Positions 29,278-63,300 of a stretch of DNA of 64,000 nt are shown here, one piece after another. Position 1 is the first letter of the stretch; every line of letters starts with the position of its first letter. A model generated the notes under the pieces. The model had not been told where the DNA came from, ran no database searches, and saw only the letters and a list, made by a program, of their open reading frames with translations. Origin of the DNA: Candidatus Omnitrophota bacterium (GTDB lineage: Bacteria > Omnitrophota > Gorgyraeia > Gygaellales > Profunditerraquicolaceae); NCBI GenBank assembly GCA_028717245.1, contig JAQUOD010000002.1:12772-76771 (forward strand). The letters are read 5' to 3'. The position numbers were made by a program, and so were the translations under genes.

Positions 29278-29290
29278 AAGCGAGGCTAAA

Positions 29291-30300
29291 TTGAGTAACT
29301 GGCGAGAAAAAATCTGGTTAAAAATTGTTGCCCTGACCATTGCCGGAGTATTTTTATTTTCCGAAACCACCTGGGCAGCCAGAGCAGACTACCGCGTATC
29401 TATGCCTGAAACCGAGCAAACAAGCTACCCGCAAGTCCCCCAACCGAAATTGGGGGATTTTTTATTGAATATTTATCACGAAATAGCCTCTTTTATAGTC
29501 CCTTCAGCTCAAGCGGCTGAAATAGCGCCTTGCGGTGTAGATAAAGTAACTAAGAATATGCCTGTCTTAAATCCCAATTCTAATTGGCAAAAAGCCAATC
29601 AAACCGTAGTTTTATCAGAAAATAAGGCAATTGATACGGTTGATACAGTTGATACGGTTAAAAATAGCTTAATTGAAGAAACTGGAGATATGAGAGTAGC
29701 TGAAGCTGAGCAGAAGCCGCAAGGAGATGCGCCAGCGCCAACCCCAACGGTTAAGGATTCCGCGCTTCCTGCCCAAGCTCAGCCGCCTCAAGGTTCCGAG
29801 ACTCCCTCTGTCCCCGTAGATTACACTAAGATTAATAATACCAACGATCAAACCGGCTTTATTCCGATTAAACAAGCTCAATTACCTCAAGAAACCGCAG
29901 CGATTACTTTACATAGCAAGGATCCGCCTAAGATGAGCTTCAACTGCGCAGTCTCCGCACTCTCTCAACTCTTGTCAGATGTCAACTCCGCTATATTGGC
30001 TAAAAGCCTGGCCTTATATACTCAAGACGGCCAGACCTCTCTCTATGGAATCCAGCAAGTAGCCAAAGAATATGGTTTGGATCTTTACGCCAGCCAACTC
30101 TCCCTTACTGACCTCAAAAATCTAAATCAACCCGCAATTGCCCATTTAGACTTAGGAAATGGCCTTGGCCACTATGTAGTAGTGACCGGAATTGATGTTG
30201 AAGGCATTACCTATATAGATAACAGTATCACAAAAACCGTATCATTAACTGAATTCACTGCCCAATGGACAGGATATACGCTTACTACCGAGGCAGGTAT
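29291..30300. repeat. inverted duplication arm 2 (5' ~1 kb of giant plus-strand gene)
   Basis: see arm 1; encodes same TM + Pro-rich + C39-like module. Confidence 0.7.
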
Positions 30301-42300: not shown

Positions 42301-45300
42301 CAAATTAGATAATATAAGGGCCTCTACAAAGACAGTAAGGGAGAATCCAATCCAAGAGATGTTTGAGGGCGGCGGCCCAATTATTGGCCTTTCTGCAACT
42401 AAATCCGGTGCTGAGAAGATAATGCTTGCTAAAACCGGAGCATCTGGAATAGAAGAAATAGGGCTACAAAGCAATATTAGTGAGATGATAGGGGCAAGGG
42501 AGGTGCGAGTGGAGAAAGATACGGGGATTTCGAGATTAATTGATTTAGCCGTTGAAGCCGTTGAAGGCAGAGGGTTAATTGATTTAGCCACCGGAGCCGC
42601 TATCGAAGGCAAGCGAGGCGTTTTAATTGAAATAGATAACCCTACATGTTTAGATAGGGTTTTTAAAGAACTGCAAAATTCAGAGAAGTTAAAAGGAAGG
42701 CAAGTAGATGCCATTAAAGGAGATACGCCAGTTGATAAAATTGATGAATTACGTAAAAAAATAGGGCCGGAAGCACGTATAGTAGTAGCTCTGCCAAGAG
42801 TGGCAAAGCAGTGGAGTTTTAAGGGAAACCTTGATGTGATAATTTATGGAGCTGAGGGTTGGACATGGGATTTCCTTACCCACGGCATAAACAGAAACTG
42901 TAGAGACTCTGGGGCGGTAGGAAACAAGATAGTCATTGTTAATGAGGAAAGATTAAATGAGACCCTTGCCTACTTAAAAGAAAACCTTTCTTTATACAGG
43001 GATTATTCGGATGATGAAGCTAAAGATTTACAAAATTTAGTTAAAAATAAGATAACCGATACAAAAGATATTCTTTCTCTGTCATTAGAAGACAGGCTTC
43101 TTTTAAATGCAGATTTTCTTCAGATTGTGCAAACTTCTTCTTCCCATAAGAGCGCCATTCTTACTATCTTTAGAAATACCAGATCAACCGCGCCATTACA
43201 GAAATTATTTGATGACGCCGGTCTAACTCCCGAGGAAAGAGAGGTTATCGAGGAAGTAAGAACAAAGGAGAGAAGCGGCCTTTATGGTTTAATCCAAAGA
43301 TTAAATGACGAGCCGCTTTCAGGCGTAGAATGGGTAAGGGTAGTTTCGCAACAGAGCTGGGAATCAGCAATAAAGATGTGGGATGACCTTTTGAGTTCTA
43401 AAGGATTAAGTGAAATGACACTGCAGAAGGTTCAGGAACTGAAAGAATTTGCCCAAAGCAGTAAAGAACATGAGAAAAAAGATTTCGGAAAGATACTGCC
43501 TTCTAGATATGGATTAAATCAAGTGCCTGTGAATCACGATTCAGTCTTAGGAGTTGCTAAATATTTAGGGGAGGATATTCTTCCTTCAAGAATTGTTGAC
43601 TTCTTCGCTTCCACACCAACTGCTACTCAAGTAGCAGGATCCGTAGGTGTTAATAAGGCTCCACCCAAGACAGCAGAAGAATTTGTTAACCAATATTTTG
43701 CTAATCTATCCCCTCAAGAAAAATCCGCTGTAAAGGAATATTTAAACGATCCCCAAAATGATTTTGCCCTCGGTAATGGAAACCTGAATACTCGCGGAAG
43801 ATTATTCGCTGCCCTGATAGATAAAATACTTAGTCTGCCCGGAGAAGAAATAGCCAGCCTGCAGGCAATAGGGATAATCCCTGCTAATGCCGGCGGGATT
43901 AAGCTTTCTACAATAGAGACATTCGAATTAGTAAAGGCAATATTTGAAAGTGGATTAGAAGCGGATTTAGATTGGTTAATTTCGGCAGGTAGAGTGATTA
44001 AAGCTTTCGGGAACAATCTTCAGCCGATTACTTTTGAGAAAATAAAAGAGTTACAAAAAGAATTTCCTGCCTTAGCCAGATTCATCTTAGCAAATATTGA
44101 CCAGAGCAAGCCTGAGGGTAAAGAGCTATATCAGAAATGGGATGCCATAGTAACACGTCAGGAGAAGGCAAATAAGAAATATAAGCAAGATATTTCTAAG
44201 CTTAACAACCCATCTTTACCTTCAGCAGTAAGAATTATGATGCTTAAACGTGCCTCTGAAGCTATGGAGAAGGCTTGTATTAGCGTTAAGGAAGCCAGAG
44301 AGATAAACAATGACCTCGGTGTAGTTGCGGCTTTACTTGGCCTGATTAACACACCAAAAGCACTTGATGAATTTAATAAAGCTTATAAAGACTTGGTGGA
44401 GGTACCCAACATAGAAAAGGAAAAAATTGATAATGTTTCGCTTGCTACTTTAGCAAAATTAGTAAACGGCGAAACCAAGCTCGTTGACTTTATTATATCC
44501 ATAGGCAAAGAAGGTCTTTTTGATGCAGCCTGCGATGTAAGGAATGTTCTTGGCGTAATAGAGAAGCTTACAAAAGTAAAAGGGATTTGGAACTGGGGTG
44601 AAAAAATTACTCAAGAAGCGGTGAATAAATATGCTGAAAAATTTACCAAAGGCGATACAAAGAAGGCAGAGGCTGAACTGAAGAAATTAGCCGCTGATTT
44701 AGAAAAAGATATTAAATCTTTGCAAGAGAAATTAAAGGGCTGGAATCCGCAAGAAGGAATTACAATGAAAGTTATCCAGGAGATAGCTAAGATTGATAAT
44801 CTAGATTCGAATGATGCAGATCTGAAGGTAGTTTATATTCTCTTCTTAGGTCTTGCGACTACCGATGAAGAAATTGCAAAGATAAAAAAGAATGCCGAAA
44901 TCGCCGCTTCGCTTAAGGGAATATATCTGGTAATTACGGAGACGGATGGAAGGGTAGAGTTTGTAGATGTTGAGCCAAAAGATGGTAAAGTAAAAATTGG
45001 CGATAAAGAGTTAGGGGTTAAGGAATTCTATCCAATGGAGTCCCTGCCGCTAAATATTTTAAGAAATATAAAGCTTTTCGGCCATATTGCTCAAGGCGAA
45101 ACAATTACTTTGGGTGAAGGAGCCAACCAAATAACACTTACTCCTTACCAAAAAGAAGCTAATTGGAAAGTAGTAGCAGAAGGCGGGAAATTAGATTATC
45201 AAAGATTTGATGCGGGGACTGAATTTGAAGATAAAGCAACAGGTGATATCTGGCAGCCTACTGAACAAGGGTTTAGGATAGTCCAGACTATGGATGGCCT

Positions 45301-48300
45301 TAAAATAGAATATAACGCTGACGGTACAAAAACTATAACAGTAGTTGCGGCCGAAAGGAAGTATGCGGTTTTGAGCGATGGGTTAGTGGTTTACTTAAGC
45401 AATGGCGTATCTTACGTTAGATCTGATAAGGATAATTCACATACGCCCAACTTTAGAAAAGACTTAATTGGCCAGGAGATCGGGACTATAAAGAATGGTG
45501 CTGGAGAACAGATTGGCAGAGTTAAGTTAGAAGCCAATCCTGATAATCCGGATGAACCTTTTACAGTATATATCTATGACCGCGATTATACCTTTACAGG
45601 AAAAGATTCAGAGGGGAAAGAGGTATCTGTTACTACCTCCCAAGGCACAGAGATTAAATATAATCATCAGGGAGAATATGTGAGCCGAGTATTAAATGGT
45701 CTGGAATACAAACGGGACGGAGTAGTAACCGTAGTTGCTGCCGAAGGAGTAGAATTACCATTGCCCGGGATACGTTCACTTATTTTAAATATTCCTGTGG
45801 GTACATCTTTTGTATTCGGTCCTTTCGGCCCTCAATTGCCCGACGGCCAGTATAACCTTAAAGGCGACGGCGGTTCGGTTATAATAGGAGCTATTGATGG
45901 TAAGAAAAATTACACAGTTACGCTTAAAAAGGATGCTAAAGTTGGTTTAATGGAATTCGCTGCAGGATCAAAGGCTAAAATCGAGTTTATGTCTGACGAG
46001 GAAGTAAAGAATATGTTTGGAGATTCTTTAGATAAAGAAAAAACGCAGGCAGCCATCGAATTATCCGGGTTATCATTCCCTCCCCAAGTAACTTTATTAA
46101 AAGGTAGTTATGTTTCTGGCGGTTTACAGGTTGTTGTCCAAGACGATGGCAGCCTAACCGCAAAAGTTATCAGCGAAGGCGGAAACAGATACGCGTTTAT
46201 GCAACAAGAGGTTATTTTGCCTAAGGCAACGCCAGTTAAGGTAGATAGAGCTGGCAATATAACAGGTATTACTCCTGGCCGTTATGAATCTTCAGACAAA
46301 AAAGGCTCAATAGAGCTGGATGAAGATGGAACTTATACCGTAACTTACAGTAAGGAAGTAGATTTAGATTTGACTATTGGGGAAGAGGCTGAGAAAAAAG
46401 ACAAGAAAGAACATCATTTAGGCGGAACAGTTATCCTCTATACCCCTATTCCAGGTGAAGAGGGTAACTTTAGAGTATATGTTTTAAAAGAAGGCGATCA
46501 GCATGATCCAAAATCGCCTGCTAAAGCTCCTGACGTAGTTGCACCAGACGCCAAAGAGTTTTCTTTGGAGGTATTAATAGGTAAGGAAATAAGCCTTAAT
46601 GGTTCAGGAAAGGGCAGAATAGCGAGGAATAACGGGAATAAAGATGTGGCTCAAGTCCTTGATCTAAATAATAAGCCTGTAGCCGAATTAAAATATATTT
46701 CCAATAATGGTGAAGGCGCAGCAGAGATTGTCGTTAATAGTATTGATGGTTTAGGAGAAGGTGCGCTGGAAGAATTAACAAAGAACCTGAAAGAGAGCTT
46801 ACCGGCTCCGTTTAAAGATAACATAACTGTAAGGACAAACAACACTAATAATGGAAATGGAAACGGCTCTGATTCAGCGAAAGGCCCAGAACATTCTAAG
46901 AAAGACAATAAACCCGGTTCACCCGGAATGTTATCTATTGTACCATTTGTCTTTATATCTTCGGCATTCATGACCCCTTATGCCACCGGTCCGCCGATAG
47001 CCGGACTCAATGTTGCTTTATTCGCAAGCATTGCTGTGGTTGTAGCTGTAAGTGTAGTTGTAACAATTGGCTTTATAAAATATATTAAGAATCAAAAAGA
47101 AGGCGCAAAATGGCAGAGTATAATAGAACAGACAATCTGGAATTTGAAGTTGACCATCTCGTGGTTCTTGAGAAAGACGGAAGGATTATGGTCGCTGCTA
47201 AGTCGGATGCTCTCTTCCTTATTGACCAGCACACCGGAGAGGTTTGCGTCCATCAACCCGATGGGTCATGGGAAAAGCTCTGGGGTACTGAAAGCAGAGG
47301 AGTCATCGCCCACACCGTCGCAGCGCGTAATCAAGGGGTCCCAGTCTATCTGCAATAAGGGTAGCGGGCCTTCTTACACCCTCCAATCTCTCGGACAACG
47401 CGTTCCGGCCTTATATCATCCTGATAATAATAAAAATACATTTCACAATATGCCGACTGCGGAGGAAGTTAGATCCTGGGCTAAAACATTAGAAAAGTCT
47501 TATCCGAAGGTTGCGGCTGAGTTATATAGATTAGCAAGACTGCTTAAAAGACTTGAAGAACTCACGGGTGGAGAACCTATTGCCAAAAGGGATAATAAAG
47601 GAGAGTATGAATACCATTCTAAACTGGGTAGAAATAGACAGGAGGCAGAAGCCAAAATTAATGAATTACTTGGAGGAACGGATGCCGCTTTTGTCATTAG
47701 TCAGGTTATAGTTCATGAAAAAGAGGAAGACCATAAAAAAGGAATAACTAGCCAGTTAGCCCAAATAATACATACTATCCGGATAAAAGATATTATAAAG
47801 GCAGCCGATACAGTTAATACGGAGCTGGTTGACCTCTTAGATAAGAGGAGCCCTGATGATAGTAAAGATGATCTTAAAGTCAGGGCTATTATGGCAGTCA
47901 TAATTAGACGCATATTTAGAGTAAACGGCAATAGGGCTATAACCATAGACGAAAATGCGAAAGAAGGCGCTCTATATGATTTAGGAAATATTGGAATAGT
48001 TGATAGGAAGTTGGAAGAGATAAGGGAAATGACAGAGGAATTCTATAAAGGATACGGTAATTATGAGCCAAATTTATTAATACATTTAGCCAATGCTGTA
48101 AAGATAAAAATACAGAACTATGATTGGTATGATGCAGAAGAAATAACAGAGCTCTTGAAAATTAAAGAGCTTGACAACGGAGAAGTTGAAGGTAGACTTA
48201 AAAAACTTGAAGATGGACTCGGCCAGACCAAAGAAGAACTCGGCCAGACCAAAGAAGAACTCGGCCAGACCAAGAAGACGGCCGAAGAGGCCAAAGAGGC

Positions 48301-51300
48301 AGCGAAAGACACTATTAAGATAGAGGATATGCCAGTCCGTAGAGTCCATTGCGTTGTTTCTTTTGTGCGTTCTCTTACTTGGTTAACTTCTATAATGAAA
48401 GATAAAATTATCAGCGCGATAGAAACATCAGATAGAGAATTATCCACTATCTTAAATATCTTTAATACAAAAATAATAGAATTTAAATTAGGATTAGAGA
48501 AAAGATTAGCGGCCTTTGCTGTTGATATAGATAGATTAAGAGAACTCCTGAAAAAGGGTATAACAATATATGCTCTGGAGAAAATAGGAAACGGAGAATA
48601 TCATTTTGTGCAAATAATAAAAATCAATGAAGACGGGACAGTGTCGGTTTTAGATAATGAATCCGAAGATGAAAAAGGCATAGCAGGACGCTCAGATGTG
48701 CGCTTAATAAATCTGGTTAAAATAAAAGGAAAGTTTTTGGTGGTTTCTTATGAAAAGTATAAAGAAGGGCAAGAAGAAGGTGTATTTAAGAAAGAAGAGG
48801 AACTTTCTAAGAAAGAGATAGAGAGTATAAAGGGGAAAGTTAATACACTTTCGCCTAGCAACACCGCGCCCGGCACCAGCACCCCAGGTGGCGAAGTTGC
48901 CCCGGGCGGCGGAAGCGGAGCAGGCGCTGTTGGTGGAAGCAAAGGTTCAGCCACAGGTTCCGGCGCCGCAGGCTTCGGTGGCATAAGCGGTGAAGATTCA
49001 ATATTCGGGGATAGCGGGGTAGTGATTATAGGCGGGGTTGCTTACCCGATACAAGGCGCAGATTTATCAGCATTGATTAACGCTATTTTAGGGACTTTCT
49101 TCGGGGTAGTTAATCCGGGCCAAGGCGCGGCTGGGCTGAATGAGAGCGGCAGCGGCAAAGAAGGGGCTTCTTCAATCCAAGGCCAGGTTTCTTATACCGA
49201 TACCATTGGTAAATATAACGGAGTATCCGCAAGAATTCCTTTTGGCGCAATACCTTTTGGCGCAGGCATACCCGCGGCTCCAGTAGTAATAGTCCTGAAC
49301 GGAGAGGGGAATAATCCTCAAGATAAAGATAGGGCCCAAGTTGCCGTCAGCGAAATACTCAACCAGATTAAGCTCGGTTCAGCGCGGGCAGTGATATTGA
49401 ATGAACAATTCGTAATTTTCGTTTGCCAGGCCCAGTTGAACAAGGCGTCGCCGGCAGGGGCAGGGGTATCCATCATCCTCATTTTTGCCAACATCCAATC
49501 CCTCGCCCAATTATTGGCTGCTTTCTTAAGCGCCAGCCAGAATCCGAACGATAAATCCACTCCCTCAAACGAAGAAAATGATTTAAGGACGCTCATTGAA
49601 GGAATTATAAAAGCCATACTCAAAGATCTTGAGAATAAAGATAAGCTTGAGGATATAATTGTTAAATTAAACGCTGCCCTCGCTTCCCTGATAAATTCCG
49701 GCCTTACTCAAGGCATTTCTAAGATTACGGTTACCGTAGTTCCTGCCTCTTCCAAGACAGCTAATGCCGCGGCAGATATGGTAGCTAACAGCGAAAAAGT
49801 AGCAACAGGCAGCAGGAGAGCACAACCGACAGAGAGAAAAGAAAACGCTTTCACCCCCGAAGAATTAGGCGCTGTTGTAGCAGCGTTATTAAAGGTAATA
49901 AGCTCAAGAGACAATGTTTCTGAAAAAACATTAAGCAAATTAGAGCAGCAGGTTGAGGCGTTAGTTGAGTTGGTAAAGGGTCAATATCAGCTCATCCAGC
50001 CCAGGCCTGAAAACGGCATAAATACGGTTATTATTATTCTCGGTCCTCCTGCCCCTGAACTCCCTCGCGCAACTATGTTTGGAGGAGTAACAGGGGTCAA
50101 TAAAAGGGTCAGAAGTAAAAAAGGAGGATCAAATGTTAAAGTTAAATTTAGAGAATTGGCAGATGGAACTAAAATCATTATATACACAATTTATGGTGGC
50201 AGAATTCGAAAGGTCCAGAAGAATTACCATGGAGGATCTGGGACAGTTAGTACAGGAAGTGAATCTGAGCTACGACGGAATCCTAGGCCACCAAGCAGCG
50301 TAGGCACAACTTTTATACCGGGTTTACTTGGATTTGCTGCTTTACCTTATATAGGGCTTAGTTCTAGCGTAGTAAATTGGCAAACAGGAGCTACAAATTT
50401 AGTAGCGATTGGTTTAATCGCGCTGCTATCTTACGTTGCTTATGATCGTATCATTAGATTATTAAAAGCGGCAGAAGAAGGCGCAATTTATAGGCCTCGC
50501 AGTCCGCCTGCAAGTAATGGCGTAGAATCCTTAATAATCCAGAGTCAAACCGCCTTTATCAATAATCCTTCCTTAATTCAAAACTTAATAGAAGAAATTA
50601 GAAACTTAACCGAGCCGCTTATGCCTCCTACCGTGGCAGGTAGAGTATTTGCGGCTATTGTTGTAATCGGGGGCATGGTGACAGGAGCCCTCCTCCAGGG
50701 ATTGACCCCTCTTGTTGCAGCCCCCGTTACAACTATAATCATAGGAGGTGTAATATGGTTAACTACACTGAACTGGATTTTGACCACATCGTTGAGTTCA
50801 TCCACGACTCTACCGTCTTCGCTGCTGCTAGAGAGAACGGCAATGGCCATATGCGGATTTTCCTTATTAATGAGCTTACCGGCCACGTTTACACCCGTAA
50901 CGGCCGCGCTGATTCTTGGGAGCAGCTTTTTGGCAGCGACCGCGAAACTATTCTCACTCGCCTTAGCGCAGCGCGCAACAACCACACGCCGGTCTACAGG
51001 ATCAACGGAACCAACGGCTCGTTATAACGGAGGTAAGCGAGCCGCTGGTTCTCCATTAATTCCGCCTATTTTGTCATACTACGCTACGCCTTCGCAAGAG
51101 AAATCCGGACATGTAGGGGGAATGAGAACCGGTGGTGGAGTAACTTTACGTTGCAATGACGAATTTACAGTAGTATTGCAGGTTGGTAATACGTTGGTAG
51201 CGATAATAAAAGATAAATTAGGTTTAGGTAGTTACCGTGCAGTCAGAATTGATGGGGATAGCCAACAATTAGGCAGAGAGGTGTCATTTACAGAGAGTAT

Positions 51301-54300
51301 TGAGATAGGTAGAGACGAACAGAGTGGCAGATTTAAATTAGGTTCTCAGATTTCAAGCGTATGGAGTGATACTCAAGTGTCACGTAGGCATACAAGGATA
51401 GCAGTTTTAGATGGCGGTTTTATTGTAGTTCAGGATTTGAATTCTTATCATGGCATATATTATCGTGAGGTTAATAATGGCAGTGGTAATGTAGTTTCAG
51501 CTGATAGCGGCAAACATACTCAAAGTAATAATCGCGTTGAATACAGAAATGGCAATAAAGTTTTAATCGGAGACGTTGTTGGTATTATTGAGGTTAACTA
51601 TGCAGGTAAAAGAGGTATATTTAGAAGAGTTGTATTTGTGAGAGCCGAAGTCGCCCAAAACGTGGCATACGGATTTTATCCGCAGGGTAGCAGTGAAGCT
51701 TACGTTATATTAGAGCCGGATATGAGAACAGAGGGTAGCAGATTAGGCAAGGCCAGCCATGAAGGGAGACACGGGCTTGATTGGATGGAATTTGGTAGCC
51801 AAATGAATGAAATAGACAGAGAATACACCGCGCGCTTAACTACACTGGCAGAGAATCCCGATGACGACGAAGTAAGGGCAAGTTTTGGCAGGCGCATAGC
51901 CGAATATCAACGAAGGTCATTAGACAACCATGCCGAAGCTACACGACGCATTATTACCAATTTCATGGATAGAATAAAAAGATATATTTTTGGAGAACTA
52001 TATTATATACCTGCAGAACAAATTAGAAAGATAGCAAAAGAGTTACTCGAGGAATTTTATCAAGGTCATTTCGGATATATACCTAATTATCCTATGATTG
52101 GTAGACAGTCCATTACCTCTCCTAAAATTCAACATCTCTCTTCCCGCACCACCCTGCCTTTTATGGGTTTGGCGGCAGTGGGGCTTGTTCTGTCAATCCT
52201 CTCTGGCAATCTAGCACTGGTAGTGATTTCAGGTATCTATCTTGCCTGGAAGATATGCCAGCTATTCCATAAGGGCGAGTTTGATCCAAAAACAGGCAAG
52301 ATAGTTTATACAGACGCAAGCCTTGCTGCCGAAGCCCATGAACAAACCCATAAGTTACTGTGGAATTTCGGTATTAAAAATAGATTTATCTCTGAGGCTT
52401 TAGCCCAGTTGTTAGATTTACTAGTAGGAGCGGGAAGGCTTATTGGGCGTGCTTATGAGCGCGGCGCTGGTCTATGCCTAAAAGGACCAGAACAATTATT
52501 GCGAATACTGAAACAATTATTGCGGCCGTTAATGCCATATCATTCACCTCGCTCTTCTTTCTTGGGTGGGCTGACAGTTATTGCAAGGGTAATTAATAGA
52601 ACTAAAGCAATGCCCAGGGCTGTTCTAATGGTTGCAGAGAATTTAACAAAGAATTCGGATGCCAGCATAGCAGCAAAAAGAATGCTGGAGAGATTAAGGC
52701 ATATTCTAAATATCCCTTCTCTGCGGCCGTTATTTAGAAATCCGTTCTCTACCATCACAAAATCTATATCACACCTTACAAATCCTGTCAAGGGAATTCT
52801 ACCCCAGCCGCAATCCACGCAGCTTAACGTAGGGCTACGAGCCGGGTTAATCGCAGCCTCCCTTGCGGCTGCAACAACTCCTCAGGAGGATCAAAAAGTA
52901 GACGAGGAATCTATAATCCGTTCTGCTAACGAATTCTTCTTAGGAGCAGTAAGGCGGATTAAGGAAAAGACCGGCATAGATGGAGAATTTACGCCCCCAG
53001 AAATAATTTTTGTTGGTCGATTAACTAAAGAACAGGATTACCGGCTCAAAACACTTGAGAGTAGGGAATTGTCCGGAAAGCTAAGCCAGGAAGAGCTGGA
53101 AGAGAAACAAAAGTTGGAAAGTAATTTGAGGAATAGTTCGGAAGCTAACTACGATAAACAAAAGAACCAAATAAGGTTACTTAAGGGAAAAGTTATCCGG
53201 CAGGGAGCGTATCGCCATGAGGAATTACATGCAATCAGGCACCAATTTATTTTACAACGGTTCGGAGTTATTGAAGTGAATGAAGGCTATAGCATGCTGG
53301 ATCGGTACCTGAGTAGTATTTGTAAAGTAGAAATAGAAGGGAAAAAGGTAAAAGTGATTCCTGCGTATATGATTGAATTCTTCGCGCTATTAGATGAGAT
53401 GATTTCAAAAGAACTTGGCTTAGCCAATGGAGAAGATACGCGAGAACTAAGTTTGCGAGGATTAAGAGAGGCAGCTGAATATTTCAAGGGCGGTTTTGAT
53501 ACAAAGTTTTATGAAATATTAGAGTTGGGCGAACAAGTAATTGGGGTGCTTGAGGATATCGCTCGGCAAGATAAAGGAATTGACGAAAAAATTCAGGAAG
53601 CAAAGAATGCCCTTGCGCAATATGCGGATAAGGTTAGGGAATTAGGGAAGAGTATACTAAAGAACCAAGCCTATCTAAAACTACTTTGTCTAAAAACAGA
53701 CCCGGAGAAGTACGTTGGCTTATTACGTGATTTTTTTGAGATTATGGTGTCATTGTCTAAAACTTATGATAAAGCATTGCTTGAGAATGGAAGTTTAGGC
53801 GTTGAATTCACGTCCTTAAAGAAAGATGTCGCTGTATATAAGGAATACATAGAAGAGAATTTTGATTTTGATAGAGATACGTTAATATTAAATGGTAATG
53901 ATTCTGTGGCGCCCTATCTAGCGACTAAAATATTTATTACAGAAAAATACGAAGAAATAAGGAAGAATTGGGAAAAGATTTTTGTAATGGACGCTACAGA
54001 GGTAGAAGAGGTTTACTTTAAAGATGTTTTTAAAGCAATGGAGCAGATAGCGGAAGATTATGAGAGGAATATTATAAAAAGAGACGTAAGTGTGGATATT
54101 TCTAAAGAGGACATAGAACAAACTCAGGCCCTCTCCCTACGCACCACCCTGCCTTTTGTGGGTTTGGCGGCAGTGGGGCTTGTTCTGTCAATCCTCTCTG
54201 GCAATCTAGCGCTGGCAGTGATTTCAGGAATTTATCTTGTTTGGAAGATATACCAGTTGACCTGTAAAGGTGAATTTGACAATTACATAGGCAAGATAAA

Positions 54301-57300
54301 GAGCGCTGAAGGCCTTGGAGGGAAAATCCACGAGCAGACTCATAAGTTACTGTGGAATCTCGGCGTTAAGAATAGATTCGTCTCTGAGGTTTTGGCTCAG
54401 CTGTTAGATCTACCGGTAGGAATAATCGGGTTGGCTGGCAAGATGATTAGCGGGCGTGCTTGCGAGATTGGCGCTGTTGGACGTTTGACGCGCGTTTCGG
54501 AAGCATTAAGGATAGAGGCTTTTAAAATCAGGCAGTTCATAATAAGGCGTATTTTATTACGGAAACCAATAACACAAATGAAAGGTTATTTTGGCCAGGC
54601 GCGGCCGGATTCTTATGAAAAGGACGTACCGGAAATAATAGTAGGAGCCCCTGGCGAAAAACCGGTAAAATTAGAAGAAACGGAATTATCTAAAATAGAA
54701 AGAAAAACTACTTTTATTACCGAAGGAGTAGCTAGTTGTTCAGTTATAATTTATATAGCACAGACGCCAACCGGTTTATTTGCGTACCCTTTACATACAG
54801 TTATCTGGAACGATAGTAGGTTCCAGGAAATAAATAAGACAATTATTTCTAAGTTTAATTTAAAAGGAGCAGGAAAGATACGGGCTATAGTTATCCCAGG
54901 CCCTGTAGCCACTTTTAAGAATTGGAATCTGCAAGAGATTTTTGGAGATAAGGTTGATTGTTATGTAATACCTGAACTGTTATTGAGGATACCCAAGATA
55001 GAACACAGAAGGGTAAGGATTAGTTTTGGAAGCAAAAAATTAAGAATAGATGTGTGGGATTATAAAGATCGTCTTAAGGGGCCTTGGATGCCACGGAGGC
55101 CTTCGAGAAAGAATGTATTCTATTATTCCATAACCCCAGCCCAGCCAACCCCAGCCCGGCCGCGGCAGAAAACAGGGCTGTCCTCAATTTTATTTAATCC
55201 TATAAGTATCTTCGGTATTCCTGTAAAGATGCAATGGGCTTATCCTGTTATGTTGGCAATAATTATTATTGCTGTGGGAGCGACGCCTATTGGTTATTTA
55301 AATGGAGTATTGTTAGGATTGGGCTTAACTGCCTCGATTTTATTGCATGAGCTTGCACATTCGATGGTAGCCAATAAATACCAAAAGAATAGCTTGAAAG
55401 ATATTAGATTTACCGCCTTCGGCGCGCAAGCTAATATAAAAATAAATGGTAACATCAACATGTGGGAACAACTCAAAATACACTTTGCTGGGGCAATAAT
55501 GAATTTTGCCTTAGCCGGGTTATTGGTTGGCCTGAATGCCTTATACCCTAATGCTTATATTTTGGGTAGTTTAGGCTTAGTTAATGCAATATTAGGCGTA
55601 TATAACCTACTGCCGGTATTCCCGCTGGATGGCGGCATGATATTGTTGACAATTGCTAATAAATTTATGGATTCCAAGAAAGCCGCTTATTTAGCCGTTT
55701 ATGTAGCAAAGGGATTCGCAGTGGCAATGGCGCTGGCTGGTTTGGTAAGCCTACTATTTGGATTTTACCCCTTTGGCACATTAGTCTTTCTTGGCCTGTA
55801 TGTTTGGTATGCGGCAGGCAAAGAAGATAATTTTGAAGAAATTTATTCAATTGAAATTAGCAGCCCCGATAATTTTGAAATAAAGAAACAAAGGGAGGTT
55901 CCGGAGTATATAGGATCATTAGCGGAACACATGATAGCTCTGTATTTTTCTCCATCAAAGGTAGCCCGTATTAGCGAATTATTGAATATACTGAAAGAAG
56001 GAAGCTTTGAGCGAGGGGAACCCTATCTAATAAAAGGAGATTTTAGAGACGAAGATATAAGAGAATTATTAGATACTGCTATGAAAGAGAAAGCCATAGA
56101 GATAGGGTTGGTTAAAGCAGTTATTGCTGATGTAGAGGTTAGTTTTTGTGTGTTTGGAGGAAAAGAAGGCGTAAATTACCATAAACTTCTGGATATATTA
56201 GGCAAAATAAAAACTGGGCTAAGGCTGAGAGTCCACAATCATTATGGTAAGCAATTTTTACCGAGCGGGCCTGATTGTCCGCCTCTTACGGAGTATGCCT
56301 TCAGGCTATATACCTACTCAGAGATAGGTTTTATTGAATATGGTAGAGGCGGGGATAATGCGCTTATTAGAGAAAGCTTTAAAGATAAAGCAGGTGAAAA
56401 CTTGATTGTTTCGTGGGTACAGGGCAACAGAAGATTCCTCAAGATTATTCCTAACTCATCCGGTATTCTATTATGCAACGATTATCAGCCAAAAGATGTT
56501 TACAAAATAATCACGCCAATATTAAAGGAGAAGATAAAAGAAGGAGCTTCAAGAATAGCCTTCATAGAATCTCGCGGTGCGTGGGTAGAATGCGATGCAT
56601 CTGCCCAAGAATATTCTCGGCTTAATTCGTCTTATCCGGATTGCCCTATTTCAGGTTTACCTACCCAGCCGCAAGCTACTAAGGAGTCCACCGCCGCGCC
56701 AGCCCCAGCCCAGCCGCAGCGGGGAATGGAACCAGTTGCCGCCAATCAAAAGAATGATAATCAGATACGCATAATTCCGTTAGAGTCGGTTAAACATATA
56801 CCTTCTGTTACGGGCAAGCTGCCGGTTGTGCTTGAGACCGACAGTATGATTTTTGTGACTTATGATTATGAAATAACTACCGCAGCTTCCGAGCGGCCGA
56901 TACTGCAAACAAAAGCGGCAGGCCCTTGTATAGTTTTAATACTATATGATAAGGTAAATAAAGTAGGGCTTCTCGCTCATCGTTATAAATCTCCTGCCAG
57001 CGAAGAGATAGGGCAAATGCTTGTTGATTTGGAAAAATCCGGAGCGGATAAAAAGAATTTAACATTCACAATCCTCGGGGGTTGGAGCGGTTCAGATGAT
57101 CCGGGAAGTAACAGGCCTTTAAAAGAAGGGCTCAGGGATATGCTTCTTCAAAAAGGAATAGGTTTGGGCGAAATTGAATGGAATCCTACCTTTAGCCGTT
57201 CAGTTGCATTTGATACCAGAACAGGCAAGACCTACGATTTAGTGGCGGAATGGGAATTGTTCAGATGTCCTTCAAAATATATAGATGTCCTCCCGAATAA

Positions 57301-60300
57301 GATTGATTTTGAAAGTCTAATTAGAGGCGCAGAAGTCAAGCCAGCAGTCTCAGCCGCCCAGACGCTGCGGGGAAAAACAAGCCTTATAGGCAAAGTCTTG
57401 CGGAGAATTTTGCGGGCAGCGCAGATAGCGTTGGCAATAATCGTCTTATTTGTTATCTTTGCCCAGCCGGTTGCAGCAGCGGCAGAGGCAGTTGTTGTAG
57501 GCAACAGCACAGCGTCGGTAGCGGCATTTTCACTCTCAGCAGCTGTACCTTATATAGGTATAGCCATTGAGGTAATGCTTCTAGGAGTAATGGTTGTTTT
57601 GGGGGTGTTTCGCCATTACCGTATGCGCGAACAATACTGGGGAGCGATTAGAACATTATTCGTGTTTTTAATCTCAGGAGTTATTCTTGCTGGGCCGGTT
57701 TTGGCGCTTGCTGCATTCTCAATCCTTCCTCCTGTAAGTACAAGCCTAACCGTAGGGATAGGTATTGGGATAGGAGTAGTGAATGTAGTTTCATTTATTA
57801 TACTTATACTTAGAATCTATAGCGGAATAAGGGTTTTCTCCCGGGACAACCCCTGGTATGAGGATGTTATGGTTACAGGAGCAGCATTGATATGGGGGCC
57901 AATAGCAGGTTTCTTATATTTACTGAAAAAGATAACTGATGCCATACAAGTCAGAAAAGAAGCAGCGCAGAAAGATAATAAAAAGCTCAATGAAGAAATA
58001 AAAGGAATAAACGCTGACCTTAAATCTGCCGCTAGAGCATTTAGAAAAATGAAGGTAGTAGGGGATGAGGAAAGATTCAAGGAGGTATGCGGCTCCTTTG
58101 ACGCCGCCTATGACCGTGGCTGTGCGATACCGGCAGAAAATAGGCCTCACTCTATGGCGGAAGCCTTAAAGGAAGCATCTGATGCGCGCGAAGAAGCCCG
58201 GAAGAGGATAGAGCAGGATAAAGCTAAAAAAGAAGCCAAGCAGCCAACAGTAACCCAAAAGACTACCCAACAGGCTAATCAGCCAAAAAGAGCCATTGAT
58301 ATTTATAGAATTATTGCCGGTATATTTACTATCAGTGGAGCAGTTTCCTTGTCTGCGGCCCTCTATCTACTAATAGTAGGAATAAGATTACTCGTTACAG
58401 GAGACTATGCTAGCACGGTATCGCCTTACATTAACATAGTATTTTTCGTTTTTAGCGTCAGCGTAGTTATAACCTTAGGTTCTCTATATTATTTGTTTTT
58501 TAAAGAAAAGCTGGCTAAACAAGCCAAGCAGGCAAAAGAAAACGAGCGTCAGGCAGAGAAAGACAAGGCTTATAAGCAGGCCAGGAGAGCAGTAGCAAAA
58601 TTATCCAGATTAGATGATATGGGAGAGTTCTACACAAGGCTAAAAGCCATAGAGGATAAATATGGCATTACATTCATTGTTGAAGATCCAGCTTTACAGA
58701 AGGCAGGCGCTCAGGTTAGAAAGAATCAAGCTGCCAAAGAGGCTAGAGAAGAGCGGGCTAAGAAGCAAACCCAAAAGACAGATAGCGAGACCGAAGAAGC
58801 CAAACAGAAGGCCGCTTCTTTTGTTAAGAAACTTGCCGAAGCCGTTAAAGCTAATAATAAAGCCAAGGCCGATAAGAAGGCTGCCGAAGAAGCAGCCAAG
58901 AAAAAGGCCAAGGCAGCAAAGGCTGGGAAAGAAGCTAAAGCGTGGAGTTATGATACTCTACACCCCATGATGAAGAGTCTTATTGAATCGCACTTAGAAG
59001 TTTTATCTTCTCGGTCCGACATAAATTCTTTAGAAAAGCAGAGGGCGGAGACAGAAAACGAAATAACGGATAACACCAATAAAGGTTACTTAAATAAAAA
59101 AGAGAGCGAACACTATCAGAAGAAGCTCCGCAAGGCCTATTCATCCCGCGCGCAGCAATTAATAAAAAAGAGAATCAAAGCCGAGATTGTTTCAAGAAAA
59201 CCAAAGGATGAATTAGAGAGAATCCATAGCGAAATCGTTGGCGTAATTAATAGTCTTTCCTTAGACGAGAAAGACAAAGCAAAGTTAAAAGGAGAAGCAG
59301 ATAATAAATTAAAAGTAATCCAGGAAAAGCAGGTTAAGCAGCAAGCTAAGAACAAACCCAGCGCCGCTCCGGCAAAAACAGGATTAGGGGCGTGGATTAA
59401 ACAGAAGGCCGAGAAGCTTACCGAAGCCGCAAAGAAGGCATGGGATAAAGTCAGGGCAGGAAAGGCCCAGAAGGCTTATGATAAGCGAGAAAACAAGCGC
59501 AATGCAGAAATCAAAAAATATAACCGGCGGATCGGCCCGGCGCTTAAGAAAATGGCCTCTGCTAAGACAGTTGAAGCTGTGCGTAAGGCAGAGGCTGATG
59601 TTATTGCCTTGGATAATCAGTACCCGTGTTTTAACAAAGAAGATAGGGCCGCCCATATTAAATCCCACCGTGACCAGGCAAATTCTATAATAGATAATAT
59701 TAATACAGAAAATACCAAGAAGGCTCAAGAGAAATTAGAACAGAAACAAGCACGCCAGGCAGGAAAAGACCAGAAGGCTGCTGATAATAAAGCCAAGAAA
59801 GAGGAAGAGAAGAAATTAAAAGCTGAAGCTAAACTCAAAAAGGACGCAGAGAAAAAAGCGCAGGCAGCAGCAGATAAATCCAAAACAGCAGCCAAGAGTA
59901 AACCAGTAGCCCAAGAAAATTCCGAAAGAGGGCCTCCAGTTGCAACAGAAGATAAGCCAATAACCCCAGCTCCCAGCGCACCTGCTGAAAAAGAAACAAC
60001 TCCAGCCAGCGTTGAGAGCGATCTTCTCCGCGATCCCATAAATGCCCTCCTTTTGATTTTAGTAGTTTATGGTTTCTACGGCCTTGTGGCGCTTCCTTTA
60101 GCATTGATTTCTCCTGATATTTATCTTGCCGCCCTGCTTGGCGGATTAGAGCTCGCTGTGGGTGGGTGGCTTCTTATGTTATGGATATTTAGAGGCAAGC
60201 CCGCTAAAGCTGAAGTCACAGCAGCACCAGTAATCCCAGCAGCACCAGCAGCCCCAGTAGTATCAGAGGAAAAAGTTCCTGAGGCACCCGCCACAGTTAA

Positions 60301-63300
60301 ACCCGCAGAACCCAAAGAAACTCCTCAACCTCCTCAAACCGGAACTTCCTACGGTTATCCTTATGGGTATGGCGACGGTGCTAGTCAGATACCTCAAGAA
60401 GATTTAAAAGATATACAGAAAACTACAGAAGACCTGAAGAAAAAATTAGATGAAGTTCAAGAAGGAGAACAAACCGAACAAGAGATTAAAAAGCGCGTAG
60501 AAGAATTTATTGAGAACAAAATCTCACCAGAGCCAAGAGAAGCAGTAAGAGCTGAAATCATGAGAAGGTTGGTTGATTTAGCTGCTACCAACGAAACCCT
60601 CCGCAAGGTTTTAGTTGGAATGTTCTTCGGTGTTGAATACCCAACCCCAATTAAAAACGTATTGTTTATCCATACTGCATTAGATGGTATGGGTGATGAG
60701 ATGATAGCCGCTAGTTTATTGATGGCTCTAATGATAGCTTATCCCGATGCAAAGGTTACTATTGCTTCGGACCGCCCCTTCCGTTACAACCAGAAGAGAG
60801 TTAGGGTTGTTTCTCTGCAGCGAATTAGCAGGTATAGAGCAACCGGTTTAAATAGAGAAGACCTGGGCGATGCGGTAAGCGTTATGCCGGAGAATGAAGA
60901 AAAAATAGATTCACTAGCACAGAAGGATTGGGATGTGGTTCTCTGCTCCAGAGAATTGACTATAGGTAAAAAAGAAAACATTCCGGAATTTAAAAAGGCA
61001 AAGGTTCTGGTTGTGCTTCCTGAATGGCCGGACAGAAATGTCTTGGCCAGAGTCAGGACCCATGACGGCGCCTGGTACCCCATCGCAGGCCATGGGAATC
61101 AGTATGAGATATGCCTGAGTGTAGCCCGGCTTTTAGGCATAGATGTCAGGGCCAGCGAACCAGAGCTTTTTATATCCAGAGAATCAAAAGAATATGCATA
61201 TGTTGCCCGGAGGGTAAACGAAATGAGGGTATCTGGCGCAAATAAACCCGTATTGTTCATTAGTTTGTTTGGAAGTACCGCTCCACTTAAGGGTTTCCTA
61301 GATATGAATAAATTAGCTCGGGTAGTAGAATACATCCGAGATTTAGGCTTCGTTCTCGTTGTTGATACCAGTCATGGCAATAAGATTGGAGATAAAGAGA
61401 TGAATGCCTTTAGGTTAGCTATTAAGAATTGGGATGCTATCTATATTATCCAGGATATAGAAAATGATTATAGAGTAGCCCTTTTAGAATATTTCATATA
61501 TTTTGCAGATGGCGCAGTAACTGTTGACTGCGGCCAAATGCATACGTTCCATGCATTGGGTAAGAATAAGCCTTTATTAGCCCTGTTTAGCAAGAAGATG
61601 TATTTTAATAAATCCGCATGGTTCCCGGCTTATGCAAATTCTTTAATTCAACAGGCAATCGAATATGAAGGTACATTCGATGAGTTGACAGAGAGAAATA
61701 TCCAGCAAATAGCTATTATCAAAGATTTAATTCTTAATCATCCTAAATATGTAATTGATTCTCAAAAAGCAGGGGCACCTGTATTTGCCAATCATGAAAG
61801 CTTTAAAGCCAAGATTAAAGAGACAATCTCTGATTTATTGTTGATATATTTGCGGGAGAAAAGGTTGGATTGCGACAAGGTAGATTCCTTAGCCCGTATC
61901 ATAGCTGCAAACCCAGAATATTCTGAGTATGCCTCTAAGGCATTATTTAAAGATTTAGTCGAACCATTGATGGATAGCTTCTTGTTAGAAGGCAGGAAAG
62001 CTTATATAGAAATATTCACCGGAATAATTATGTATCTGCGTAAATACCCACAGGCAAAGATTATCGATGAATATCTGAACAGGATGGCAGTAGAAAATGC
62101 CGAACAGATGATACAACGAGTGAATAGGCTGATGCAGACGAGGCCTTTTGCTCCAAGCCGCAAAAATAGGATTAAAAAGGCCTTTGTGTTCTCCCGCATC
62201 ACTATTGGCGCAGATGTAGCTATAACAGGTATAGTGCTTGAGCGCATAAAAGAGGAATTCCCGGATGCAGAGATTTATTTCGTAGCTCCTGCTAAACAGG
62301 CTCAGCTATTCGGCGCTGATTCAAGGATTAAGATAATGGAGCTTCCTTTCCAGCGCCAGGGAGGGATGCTTGCCCGCTTGGAAAGCTGGATAGATTTAGT
62401 GAAACTTATCCAGGCCAACACCGCCGGGCTCAAGGACGATGAATATTTAATCGTGGACCCAGATAGCCGTATACCTCAATTGGGTATTATGCCTCTGCCG
62501 GTAAGGTTAGAGAATTACTTGTTCTTTAATAGCGGTGCCAGGGAAGACGAAATAAGAAACGGCGTGTTGACGGTTGGCGAGGCGACAAACCGCTGGTTAG
62601 ATGAAGTATTCGGCAAAAGAGAAAAGCCCATCTATCCAAAGGTTTGGATTAGGGCGCAGGATAAAGGATTTGCGGATAAAGTATTCAGCCACAAGAGGCT
62701 GCAAGGTAAATTCGTTGTAACTATAAATTTAGGTTTTGGCGGCAACGGCAATAAACGTATTAGCCCTGAATTTGAAGCAGGATTGATTTTAAGATTGATA
62801 GAGCAGGGTTCGACGGTTATCCTGGATAAAGGCTTTGGCCCCGAGGAGAGCGAACAGATAGACGCGATTATTAAATATATACAGGACCACGGAAAGACTT
62901 CGGCCTATGTTAAAAACGATACAGATACGATAAATGCATTTTTGAACGTAGGCGATTTTGATTTGGTTGTATTTGAAGGTAACATCGGTGAACTTACAAG
63001 CTTAATCTCAAGAAGCGGCTATTATGTCGGCTATGATTCGCAAGGCCAACACGTAGCCGCTTCTTTATCTATACCGGAAACCGTAATCTTTGCCGGATAT
63101 ATCAGCGATGTCTTTAGGCAGAGATGGCATCCTTACGGCGCAGGAGAAATAAAGGTTATAGCGGTTGATGCTCAGAACATTGATAAAAAGGATATTGATG
63201 AAGATAAGATAATTGCTTCCGTTGCAGCAGATGTAAAGGCTAAGATGCAGGAGGCGGCAAAAGCAGCAGAAGAGAAGGCTAAACAGGAAGAGCCTGCGCC

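Follow-up and report, generated by a model that had tools for sequence, protein, structure and literature searches.

Omnitrophota giants of 10,000 to 150,000 residues pose, to our knowledge, the puzzle of whether they function intact or as cleavage products, and annotation is lacking for most of their sequence. Members with an N-terminal C39 domain and many transmembrane (TM) helices have been described in two preprints (West-Roberts et al. 2023, bioRxiv 10.1101/2023.11.21.568195; 10.64898/2026.06.07.730766), the second of which lists a PF03412 architecture group with 24 members. The giant analyzed here shares their Omnitrophota origin and is likewise longer than 10,000 aa. It also has their hydrophobic N-terminal anchor, with C39 domains close to this end of the chain and TM helices by the dozen, and little of its sequence can be annotated. 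It differs from the published C39 giants in carrying M50/site-2 protease and deamidase modules, which have zero occurrences in both preprints.

For these modules, the closest described systems lie elsewhere. The protease compares best with mjS2P of Methanocaldococcus jannaschii (MJ0392, PDB 3B4R) and SpoIVFB of Bacillus subtilis (8VJL), and the deamidase with CheD of Thermotoga maritima (2F9Z) and with NTAN1, the eukaryotic protein N-terminal asparagine amidohydrolase (PDB 6A0E). The overall layout recalls the PrsW-peptidase polymorphic toxins, in which a membrane metallopeptidase, a short linker, and enzymatic domains share one chain, an arrangement proposed to process that chain itself (Zhang et al. 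2012, PMC3482391). At 55.2-57.3 kb, the giant contains a cassette of three parts: an M50 core, a 260-residue "mid" domain, and, behind a linker, a 170-residue amidohydrolase. Both the M50 and the CheD/NTAN1 families are well known, but the combination of M50 and deamidase is unreported for these giants.

The giant gene and its other modules

We found a stop-free plus-strand frame of 11,582 codons that extends from 29255 to the end, at 64000, of the window (the whole stretch of DNA analyzed, 64,000 nt). The giant ORF (29291..64000, +) likely starts at TTG 29291, on the basis of GAGG plus TTG at 29282-29293, and it runs off the 3′ window end with at least 11,570 aa. Its leader holds a c-di-GMP-I riboswitch aptamer (29165-29251, +; Rfam RF03167, 73.9 vs 59 bits, E 1.2e-15; predicted to be an ON switch), overlapped by a terminator hairpin with a 12-bp stem and a following T-run (29236-29276, +), and a promoter-like site (29072-29100, +) lies upstream of this riboswitch/terminator leader (29165-29276). 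The giant is a real gene, with in-frame domains 25 kb apart in a 34.7-kb frame and a riboswitch-controlled leader. Antisense ORFs of the region are short (all ≤92 aa), an Rfam scan of the cassette region returned no RNA family, and the neighboring proteins are recorded at NCBI under a Candidatus Omnitrophota MAG. A hydropathy scan of the giant ORF marked approximately 50 hydrophobic segments, which are predicted membrane helices.

The giant carries four Peptidase_C39 domains (29942-30346, 31301-31696, 32306-32746, and 34298-34714, +; Pfam PF03412, 153 bits over four stretches), which are internal repeats according to a blastp self-comparison and retain the catalytic NCA...GH[YW]V residues in every copy. 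Apart from these, the only duplications within the giant were a repeat at aa 2313-2675 and a TM-hairpin module at 7626/8291, while the M50, mid, and CheD-like segments had no internal duplicate anywhere in it. The hairpin module preceding the cassette (54125..54475, +) repeats 52130-52468 at 70% identity (E 2e-47) and contains an HEQTH string; we considered this string as another zincin and rejected it, as the only hints were sub-threshold ones of DUF3703 and Tox-MPTase4. A simple pattern search of the giant found no C39 double-glycine leader-like cleavage motifs, and no SecA_DEAD domain was found within its 11,582 visible residues.

The site-2 protease core and its topology

The M50 core (55193..55831, +) has six TM helices and is of the compact mjS2P/SpoIVFB type, without a PDZ insertion. 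It matched Pfam Peptidase_M50 (PF02163) with E 3.3e-15 and 56.5 bits, well above the gathering score of 27.2, and query residues 11-222 aligned to residues 9-212 of the M. jannaschii S2P chain in PDB 3B4R (phmmer, E 3.2e-16). The core also aligned with SpoIVFB (PDB 8VJL, E 2e-8). The zinc-binding/catalytic motif HELAH (55346..55360, +; aa 8698-8702, with H8698, E8699, and H8702) lies in TM2 at the end of the hydrophobic segment 8684-8703. NLLPVFPLDGG (55604..55636, +; aa 8784-8794), in TM4, straddles the end of the hydrophobic segment 8771-8790, and by homology its D8792 would be the third zinc ligand; the N..P..P.DG pattern has this single match in the whole giant. An earlier note on this DNA had taken both strings, within TM helices of the giant ORF, to define an S2P/M50 metalloprotease core. 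That assignment is borne out by the Pfam score and the full-length alignment to 3B4R, and both strings indeed sit in hydrophobic helices, within the single frame of the giant that also contains the CheD-like motifs.

In an alignment of the window M50 core with 11 free-standing M50 proteins (A3), the HExxH motif, N...NLxPxxPxDGG, and a Glu after TM6 were invariant, including the H58/E59/H62 columns of HELAH and the N/L/P/P/D/G/G columns of the second motif, and all invariant columns were common to the window core and the free-standing proteins. The core therefore shares with mjS2P and SpoIVFB its six TM helices, an end-to-end alignment, HExxH in TM2, NxxPxxPxDGG in TM4, the lack of a PDZ domain, the conserved Glu after TM6, and extra soluble domain(s) at the cytoplasmic C-terminus. 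Unlike these enzymes of 220-390 aa, it is embedded approximately 8,650 residues into a giant, and its appended domains are the mid domain and a Cys-His amidohydrolase, not CBS; in addition, AGP is replaced by AGA in TM3. Judging from these residues, the domain is almost certainly a complete, catalytically intact six-helix core of the site-2 type, for which proteolysis is predicted.

All Lys and Arg residues of the core lie in its N-flank and in loops 2-3 and 4-5, with zero in loops 1-2, 3-4, and 5-6, a positive-inside pattern that points to an N-in/C-in topology. Because both ends of the core are predicted to be cytoplasmic, the two soluble domains would be cytoplasmic as well. In P0008, a free-standing M50 protein, a cytoplasmic CBS domain directly follows the core and begins at the same point as the soluble domains in the window, which thus appear to stand where SpoIVFB-type enzymes carry their regulatory CBS domains. 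The soluble stretch ends at the next TM-helix cluster (57425..57922, +; hydropathy scan), before which lies the Lys/Arg-rich flank RGKTSLIGKVLRRILR. From the loop charges and the CBS position in relatives, we infer that the mid and CheD-type domains probably face the cytoplasm of the producer, a topology worked out by hand from hydropathy and charge, not with a dedicated predictor. Topology predictions for such Omnitrophota giants have been called unreliable (bioRxiv 10.1101/2023.11.21.568195). The reader behind the earlier note had noticed neither the predicted cytoplasmic orientation nor the conserved mid domain with its JAMM-like string, nor that the DNA comes from Omnitrophota.

The soluble domains behind the core

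The mid domain (55880..56659, +) comprises 260 residues at the CBS site of some free-standing M50 proteins. It is 39% identical (E 5e-35) to P0001, a free-standing protein of 374 aa that is its single free-standing relative and is encoded by an independent gene beside rimP-nusA. An exhaustive HMMER search of 1.84 billion representative proteins yielded 6,822 proteins at E ≤ 1e-3; among the best 150 of these, all except the first (P0001) were 200-460-aa proteins matching the M50 block, and weaker matches to the CheD part could lie below them. The domain contains the string HNHYGKQFLPSGPD (56234..56275, +; aa 8994-9007), of the form H-x-H-x7-S-x2-D, and a conserved Glu (E8961, 56135-56137), and it thereby fits the E...H-x-H-x7-S-x2-D metal-binding signature of JAMM/MPN+. 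These E/H/H/S/D residues are invariant in P0001, and the string is unique in the giant and was present in 10 of 2000 shuffles of it. The mid domain gave no JAB or Prok-JAB match in Pfam/NCBIfam at E ≤ 1 and no PDB match by sequence or profile. Against four PDB JAMM sequences, hhalign returned a probability of 0.6% and left the motif unaligned. An AF2 model was poor (pLDDT 48, with <50 in the motif region) and had no Foldseek match. We regard a JAMM identity as a lead only, since the profile and fold tests gave no confirmation. A Pro/Gln/Ala-rich linker, PTQPQATKESTAAPAPAQPQRGMEPVAANQKNDN (56660..56761, +), follows.

The last part of the cassette (56762..57271, +) is a domain of approximately 170 aa that AF2 and Foldseek place among the Cys-His amidohydrolases of the CheD/NTAN1 type (CNF1/YfiH-like fold). 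Its Cys/His core, AAGPCIVLILYDKVNKVGLLAHRYKSP (at approximately 56915-56995), lies in the frame of the giant. The putative catalytic triad T9219/C9225/H9242 (56909-56911, 56927-56929, and 56978-56980, +) aligns with the T/C/H of T. maritima CheD, and its spacing, T-x5-C-x16-H, is identical to that of CheD (T21/C27/H44) and NTAN1 (S69/C75/H92; PMC7022378). At the family level, all scores were below the cutoffs: 16.4 bits for Pfam CheD (PF03975; cutoff 25, E 0.01), 15.7 bits for the top Pfam match, N_Asn_amidohyd (PF14736; cutoff 24, profile positions 27-97 of 270), and 16-19 bits for the NCBIfam CheD equivalogs (240-251). The sole meaningful PDB sequence match was CheD 2F9Z_C (E 0.006 by both phmmer and hmmsearch).

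The fold comparison led to the same protein. The AF2 model, of moderate confidence (pLDDT 56, pTM 0.55), was built from an alignment of only the window sequence and P0151, without any CheD or NTAN1 sequence, and Foldseek against the PDB ranked CheD 2F9Z_C first (E 7e-7, TM 0.56/0.60), followed by NTAN1 (6e-6), YfiH/PgeF (1e-4), and CNFy/CNF (0.02 or worse, TM ~0.3). P0151 was the sole relative of the segment detected in a word-index search of 5.8 billion proteins (pairwise E 1e-14). The triad is invariant in P0151, which reaches the NTAN1 cutoff of 24 with 24.1 bits (PF14736) and is encoded by an independent, lipoprotein-like gene; because it carries a lipoprotein signal, this copy would be active outside the cytoplasm.

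The segment thus resembles T. maritima CheD as its best fold and PDB sequence match, in its size (~160-170 aa), and in the identical Thr-x5-Cys-x16-His spacing, but it scores far below the family cutoffs and is fused into a membrane giant. Moreover, no chemotaxis genes or domains (CheC, CheA, receptors) were found in the giant or among the scanned ORFs, namely all window ORFs of ≥150 aa on the coding strand of their stretch. With NTAN1 it shares the fold and the triad geometry, whereas Thr takes the place of the NTAN1 Ser and the score (15.7 vs 24 bits) falls short. It is very likely an amidohydrolase of the CNF1/YfiH fold with a putative triad, whose activity is predicted from the model and these residues. 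The claim of the earlier note that the segment resembles the Cys/His core of CheD-type deamidases holds for the fold and the catalytic triad but does not extend to membership in the CheD family; in Pfam, Peptidase_M50 alone of the two exceeded its cutoff. With the Cys/His pair kept in all four C39 copies, the M50 motifs intact, and the amidohydrolase triad present, the giant is predicted to carry at least three hydrolase types, as that note had counted.

A further segment, "cys2" (54662-55084; T-x5-C-x18-H), was considered as a second, upstream CheD-like domain and rejected as unsupported. It had no match in Pfam/NCBIfam and nothing relevant in the PDB, and its comparison with the CheD-like segment gave E 8.7 (BLASTP), E 2.7 (A1 profile), and an hhalign probability of 0.2%.

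Possible roles of the cassette

The explanation that fits best overall, and which we consider somewhat probable, is a membrane-anchored cassette in which the M50 core acts on nearby helices with the aid of its tethered domains. The core would cut TM helices, those in the giant or in a closely held partner being the likeliest substrates; the tethered soluble domains may bind the cytoplasmic portion of the M50 substrate or modify it, and the CheD/NTAN1-type domain would deamidate a protein at a Gln or Asn side chain, yielding Glu or Asp. That the helices are those of the giant itself is possible, if somewhat doubtful. The arrangement suggests, short of proof, that the giant carries the means of its own cleavage or modification. 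The earlier note held that the several hydrolases strengthen the idea of a polyprotein or of self-processing. The M50 core does bear on self-processing, because M50 proteases cut membrane helices and the giant has approximately 50 hydrophobic segments. CheD/NTAN1-type enzymes deamidate side chains and leave peptide bonds uncut, and the deamidase domain therefore lends no support to a cleavage model. The polyprotein idea is thus neither strengthened nor refuted, and the intact M50 core makes self-processing testable.

Because each module exists elsewhere as an independent protein, the giant can be viewed as a fusion of stand-alone enzymes. The order M50-mid-deamidase was not found elsewhere in word-index searches or in two genome-contig and two metagenome-contig scans, and tblastn detected no homologous cassette in plasmids or phages. 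As no second example was found, the cassette cannot be shown to be conserved, which is how functional coupling is usually argued. This single occurrence, the free-standing relatives of each module, and the tiling of Omnitrophota giants with many unrelated Pfam domains (10.64898/2026.06.07.730766) would also suit independent passengers, that is, M50 and deamidase as unrelated modules on one scaffold that act in trans on other proteins, with neither self-processing nor cooperation; the M50 core might, for example, cleave an anti-sigma factor or another signaling protein in regulated intramembrane proteolysis. We consider this rather unlikely: the position behind the M50 core holds a regulatory domain in relatives (CBS in P0008), which suggests that appended domains serve the protease, and the tight spacing, the short linker, and the lack of a TM helix between the modules suggest the same, although neither point is decisive.

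By analogy with the PrsW membrane peptidases, for which downstream toxins behind short linkers are proposed to be released (PMC3482391), the M50 core might instead free the CNF1-fold deamidase, which would serve as an effector aimed at prey or competitors. The toxins CNF1 and BLF1 have this fold (PMC7022378), Foldseek listed CNF structures, and a predatory or host-dependent life is ascribed to Omnitrophota (bioRxiv 10.1101/2023.11.21.568195). Furthermore, the C39-SpvB-TcdB-RHS toxin of the adjoining gene and the giant share 90-97% DNA identity at their N-termini. However, the likeness to PrsW toxins is an analogy only; the peptidase here is M50 and not PrsW/CPBP, and the module is internal, neither N-terminal nor a C-terminal toxin tip, and is followed by >2,200 residues with many TM helices. 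The deamidase is predicted to lie on the cytoplasmic face of the producer and is closest to non-toxin deamidases, its best fold matches being the housekeeping proteins CheD and NTAN1 (E 1e-6 to 1e-7), with CNF weak. An effector role is hence quite improbable.

Still less credit is due to a true NTAN1-type enzyme that would deamidate the N-terminal Asn of new M50 or C39 fragments and thereby mark or mature them. Its appeal lies in the proteases next door, the sub-threshold but top-ranking N_Asn_amidohyd match, the cutoff score of the sole relative P0151, and the second place of NTAN1 structures in the Foldseek ranking. The specificity of NTAN1 for N-terminal Asn, however, needs an appended C-terminal region with Ser254/Thr255/Glu260 (PMC7022378), to which nothing in the alignments corresponded. 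With ~170 aa, the window domain is the size of CheD; it covers only profile positions 27-97 of 270 and ends at about aa 9339, with the next TM helix approximately 50 residues on, at 9391. Lastly, a degenerate or chance resemblance, with no enzyme domain and a coincidental Cys/His pattern, might be read from the sub-cutoff Pfam/NCBIfam scores, the moderate model confidence, and the chance origin of such patterns illustrated by cys2, but it is largely refuted by four independent lines (Pfam, NCBIfam, PDB sequence search, and fold search) that lead to one superfamily and by a triad that is exact in spacing and invariant in the sole homologue.

An extended form of the membrane-anchored cassette is conceivable, although as a joint proposal it is a long shot. 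The M50 core would cut specific TM helices of the giant, dividing it into several membrane and soluble pieces, the tethered amidohydrolase would then convert Gln/Asn to Glu/Asp at or near the new ends or in a neighboring module as a second, irreversible mark of maturation or timing, and c-di-GMP, acting on the riboswitch in the leader, would switch synthesis of the entire protein. If true, intramembrane proteolysis and protein deamidation would here be coupled within one bacterial chain. Apart from this proposal, the CheD-like domain represents a very divergent bacterial branch of the CheD/NTAN1 fold group, and the predicted intact M50 core amid approximately 50 predicted membrane helices offers a concrete handle on the question of how such giants are processed.

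The membrane giant and its surroundings

The cassette described here (~55.2–57.3 kb) lies in a stop-free frame on the + strand (29255–64000; 11,582 codons), which extends past the window end and probably starts at TTG 29291, with GAGG 6 nt ahead. The motif strings quoted in the earlier note, HELAH (55346–55360), NLLPVFPLDGG (55604–55636), and AAGPCIVLILYDKVNKVGLLAHRYKSP (~56915–56995), were all found in this frame on the + strand; within 55.0–57.5 kb, the opposite strand contained no ORF >92 aa, and an Rfam scan detected no RNA family. The encoded giant has ~50 hydrophobic segments, four Peptidase_C39 domains near its N-terminus (Pfam, 153 bits), all retaining catalytic Cys and His, and almost no Pfam matches beyond C39. 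It belongs to the described class of Omnitrophota giants with N-terminal C39 and many transmembrane (TM) helices (bioRxiv 10.1101/2023.11.21.568195; bioRxiv 10.64898/2026.06.07.730766).

A c-di-GMP-I (GGC variant) riboswitch aptamer (29165–29251, +; RF03167, 73.9 bits vs 59, E 1.2e-15) sits immediately 5' of the giant ORF, preceded by a promoter-like TTGACA-17-TATACT (29072–29100, +) and overlapped at its 3' end by a terminator (12-bp hairpin and T-run; 29236–29276, +), after which come GAGG and the TTG. This layout is consistent with an attenuation-type switch, in which c-di-GMP binding would turn the giant gene on. One of the two preprints noted PilZ and GGDEF links, and the word "riboswitch" is absent from both.

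Divergent to the giant is a C39-SpvB-TcdB-RHS toxin gene (18351–26435, −). The 5' ends of the two genes (giant, 29315–30318, +; toxin, ~25450–26390, −) share DNA identities of 90% (188 bp) and 96.6% (377 bp), and both proteins have the hydrophobic anchor at the N-terminus and the first C39 domain in common, suggesting that a duplication or gene conversion took place recently and that both proteins use one route of export or processing. Between them, a gene labeled "TonB family protein" by NCBI (26598–28415, −; MDD4980039.1) encodes an unusual protein in which a TonB C-terminal domain is fused to a TolC-like outer-membrane efflux protein (OEP); it may be the outer-membrane component exporting both C39-bearing proteins. 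An RND efflux operon (6700–14677, −) and a cluster of FIST, histidine kinase, and response-regulator/GGDEF genes (2773–6418, −) lie upstream of the toxin region. The window also contains an IS200/Y1 transposase gene (16065–16739, −) adjoining an AAA_14/DUF4143 ATPase, a zeta-toxin-like kinase gene (574–1161, +), tRNA-Leu(GAG) (2611–2692), and tRNA-Glu(CTC) (6474–6548).

Within the giant, a module of ~115 aa comprising a TM hairpin and HEQTH occurs in two copies with 70% identity (52130–52468 and 54125–54475, +), the second just upstream of the M50 cassette. Its DUF3703 matches were all sub-threshold (16.5, 15.3, and 21.9 bits vs 22.3), with a faint hint of Tox-MPTase4.

A compact site-2-type protease domain

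The M50 domain (55193–55831, +; aa 8647–8859) scored 56.5 bits with Pfam Peptidase_M50 (gathering cutoff 27.2; E 3.3e-15), in agreement with the earlier note, which had proposed an intramembrane metalloprotease core. When 1.84 billion representative proteins were searched exhaustively with HMMER, 6,822 reached E ≤ 1e-3. Of the 150 matches listed, all but the first were 200–460 aa long and aligned to the M50 block, with E values no weaker than 8e-20; a Pfam scan of two such relatives assigned both to M50 and detected CBS in one. The Methanocaldococcus jannaschii S2P core (3B4R) aligned end to end with the domain (E 3.2e-16; query 11–222, chain 9–212), as did SpoIVFB (8VJL; E 2e-8), whereas similarity to the PDZ-containing RseP type was confined to the LDG motif. 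Moreover, when the giant's domain was aligned to 11 free-standing relatives, it kept every invariant column, namely H-E-x-x-H, N...N-L-x-P-x-x-P-x-D-G-G, and a Glu beyond the final helix, which makes it a complete compact protease of the site-2 type, apparently active. Among NCBIfam families, the best matches (YydH/LiaK and daptide RiPP proteases, and RseP) were far below cutoffs, and thus no subfamily was assigned. Across >11,000 giant residues, the sole other Pfam signals were a borderline FHA domain (aa ~7350; window 44–52 kb, +; 20.8 bits vs 20.7) and a sub-threshold Memo-like match (aa ~4115–4251; 17 bits vs 27).

Six hydrophobic segments can be assigned in the M50 domain, and its Lys and Arg residues are confined to the N-terminal flank and loops 2–3 and 4–5, with none in loops 1–2, 3–4, and 5–6. 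Under the positive-inside rule, this distribution places the M50 core N-in/C-in. In P0008, a free-standing M50 relative, a CBS domain directly follows the core at the same point as the giant's soluble stretch, and CBS domains are cytoplasmic. A Lys/Arg-rich flank also stands immediately ahead of the next TM cluster (57425–57922). From this hand analysis of hydropathy and charge, we infer that 55832–57424 all probably faces the cytoplasm.

The soluble domains

The CheD-like domain (56762–57271, +; aa 9170–9339) shows weak profile matches, a triad, and a fold match. It stayed below the profile cutoffs, with 16.4 bits for Pfam CheD (cutoff 25), 15.7 for Pfam N_Asn_amidohyd (cutoff 24), and 16–19 for the NCBIfam CheD equivalogs (cutoffs ~240). 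Taken alone, this sequence evidence for CheD is weak, but the weak signals are all concordant. The sole meaningful PDB sequence match, obtained both from the sequence by itself and from a profile of two sequences, was Thermotoga maritima CheD (2F9Z_C; E 0.006), covering nearly all of CheD, and T9219, C9225, and H9242 aligned on its Thr, Cys, and His. The resulting spacing, T-x5-C-x16-H, is the same as in the published triads of CheD (Thr21/Cys27/His44) and NTAN1 (Ser69/Cys75/His92) (PMC7022378). Among 5.8 billion proteins, a word-index search yielded a single relative, the 344-aa JGI metagenome protein P0151 (pairwise E 1e-14), which shares the core PILQT..GPC.V.I.YD..K.G.LAH; it carries a lipoprotein-type signal (…LVSC) and barely attains the Pfam NTAN1 cutoff (24.1 bits). 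An AlphaFold2 model for which the window sequence and P0151 were the only input, CheD and NTAN1 sequences being absent, had moderate confidence (pLDDT 56, pTM 0.55), and its top Foldseek match in the PDB was CheD (E 7e-7; TM 0.56/0.60), followed by human NTAN1 (~6e-6) and then YfiH/PgeF and CNF toxins. Based on sequence and model, we conclude that the domain is a putative Cys-His-Thr amidohydrolase of the CNF1/YfiH-fold superfamily. Because the Pfam and NCBIfam CheD cutoffs were not reached and no che genes were found in the giant or the scanned ORFs (all ≥150 aa on the coding strand of their stretch), it is not chemotaxis CheD; the CheD resemblance proposed earlier thus holds for fold and active site, not as a family assignment. 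A second CheD-like core, T-x5-C-x18-H (TEGVASCSV...AYPLH), was considered in the soluble segment between the second HEQTH module and the M50 core (54662–55084, +) and rejected, as profile and pairwise tests gave no homology support.

Between the M50 and CheD-like domains lie a "mid" domain (55880–56659, +; aa 8876–9135) and a Pro/Gln/Ala-rich linker (56660–56761, +). The best match of the exhaustive search, the non-M50 protein P0001 (374 aa; E 5e-35), is 39% identical to "mid" and is encoded by a truly free-standing gene that has an upstream in-frame stop and adjoins rimP-nusA on its own contig. Both keep an invariant Glu and an H-x-H-x7-S-x2-D string (HNHYGKQFLPSGPD; 56234–56275, +), a combination that is the JAMM/MPN+ signature; the string occurs once in the giant and was found in 10 of 2,000 shuffles. 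For "mid", no match of any kind was obtained in Pfam or NCBIfam at E ≤ 1, nor any PDB match by sequence or profile; the AlphaFold model was poor at the motif (pLDDT 48) and gave no fold match, and an hhalign comparison with a small profile made from four JAMM proteins of known structure returned a probability of 0.6% with the motif unaligned. Since none of these independent tests confirmed a JAMM domain, we report "mid" as a conserved domain with a JAMM-like string, and its being a JAMM-type metalloenzyme is doubtful.

Rarity and possible roles of the cassette

None of the three domains is repeated elsewhere within the giant, and the same cassette was not found at other loci in the genome, metagenome, plasmid, or phage collections searched. 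For the deamidase and "mid" domains, the sole relatives detected are metagenome proteins that are single-copy and unannotated: P0151 (L001, 871–1905), lipoprotein-like and upstream of a UbiA-family gene, and P0001 (L004, 119–1243), which also adjoins a pilin-like N_methyl gene. Both domain families appear extremely rare or fast-evolving.

The analysis establishes that the M50 core is intact, that the amidohydrolase has the CNF1/YfiH fold and a complete triad, and that the middle domain is conserved. The soluble domains, predicted to face the cytoplasm, would occupy the place of CBS regulatory domains in SpoIVFB-type enzymes and, from that position, would probably bind or modify substrate for the protease. 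The protease would cut TM helices held nearby, the giant's own helices being the most economical candidate substrates, and the amidohydrolase would turn protein Gln/Asn into Glu/Asp, the activity common to CheD, NTAN1, CNF1, and BLF1 (PMC7022378). Alternatively, M50 and the deamidase may be independent passengers without coupling; each cassette domain has relatives existing as independent proteins. By analogy, a PrsW-like arrangement of releasing peptidase and deamidase toxin might also apply, as it has precedent (PMC3482391) and the neighboring C39-RHS toxin has the same N-terminus as the giant, but it is disfavored by the predicted cytoplasmic orientation, the internal position of the cassette, and the weakness of the CNF matches. 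The missing specificity region speaks against a coupling of proteolysis to a true N-terminal amidase of the NTAN1 type, and bona fide NTAN1 identity was rejected on this ground. Chance resemblance of the CheD-like segment is largely excluded.

With C39 retaining Cys and His, M50 intact, and the amidohydrolase triad complete, the giant does carry at least three hydrolase types, as the earlier note stated. Of the support it drew from them for a polyprotein, only the M50 part bears on candidate self-processing, because a deamidase does not cut chains. Both enzyme families, and Omnitrophota giants as a phenomenon, were already known; modules of the M50/site-2 protease or deamidase kind are mentioned for such giants neither in the two preprints nor in the other literature searched. 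New are the site-2-type protease, intact as judged from its motifs, inside an Omnitrophota giant and the fact that a very divergent domain of the CheD/NTAN1 type, which had one relative among 5.8 billion proteins in the word-index search, is fused to it. The M50 domain provides a testable handle on whether giants get processed.
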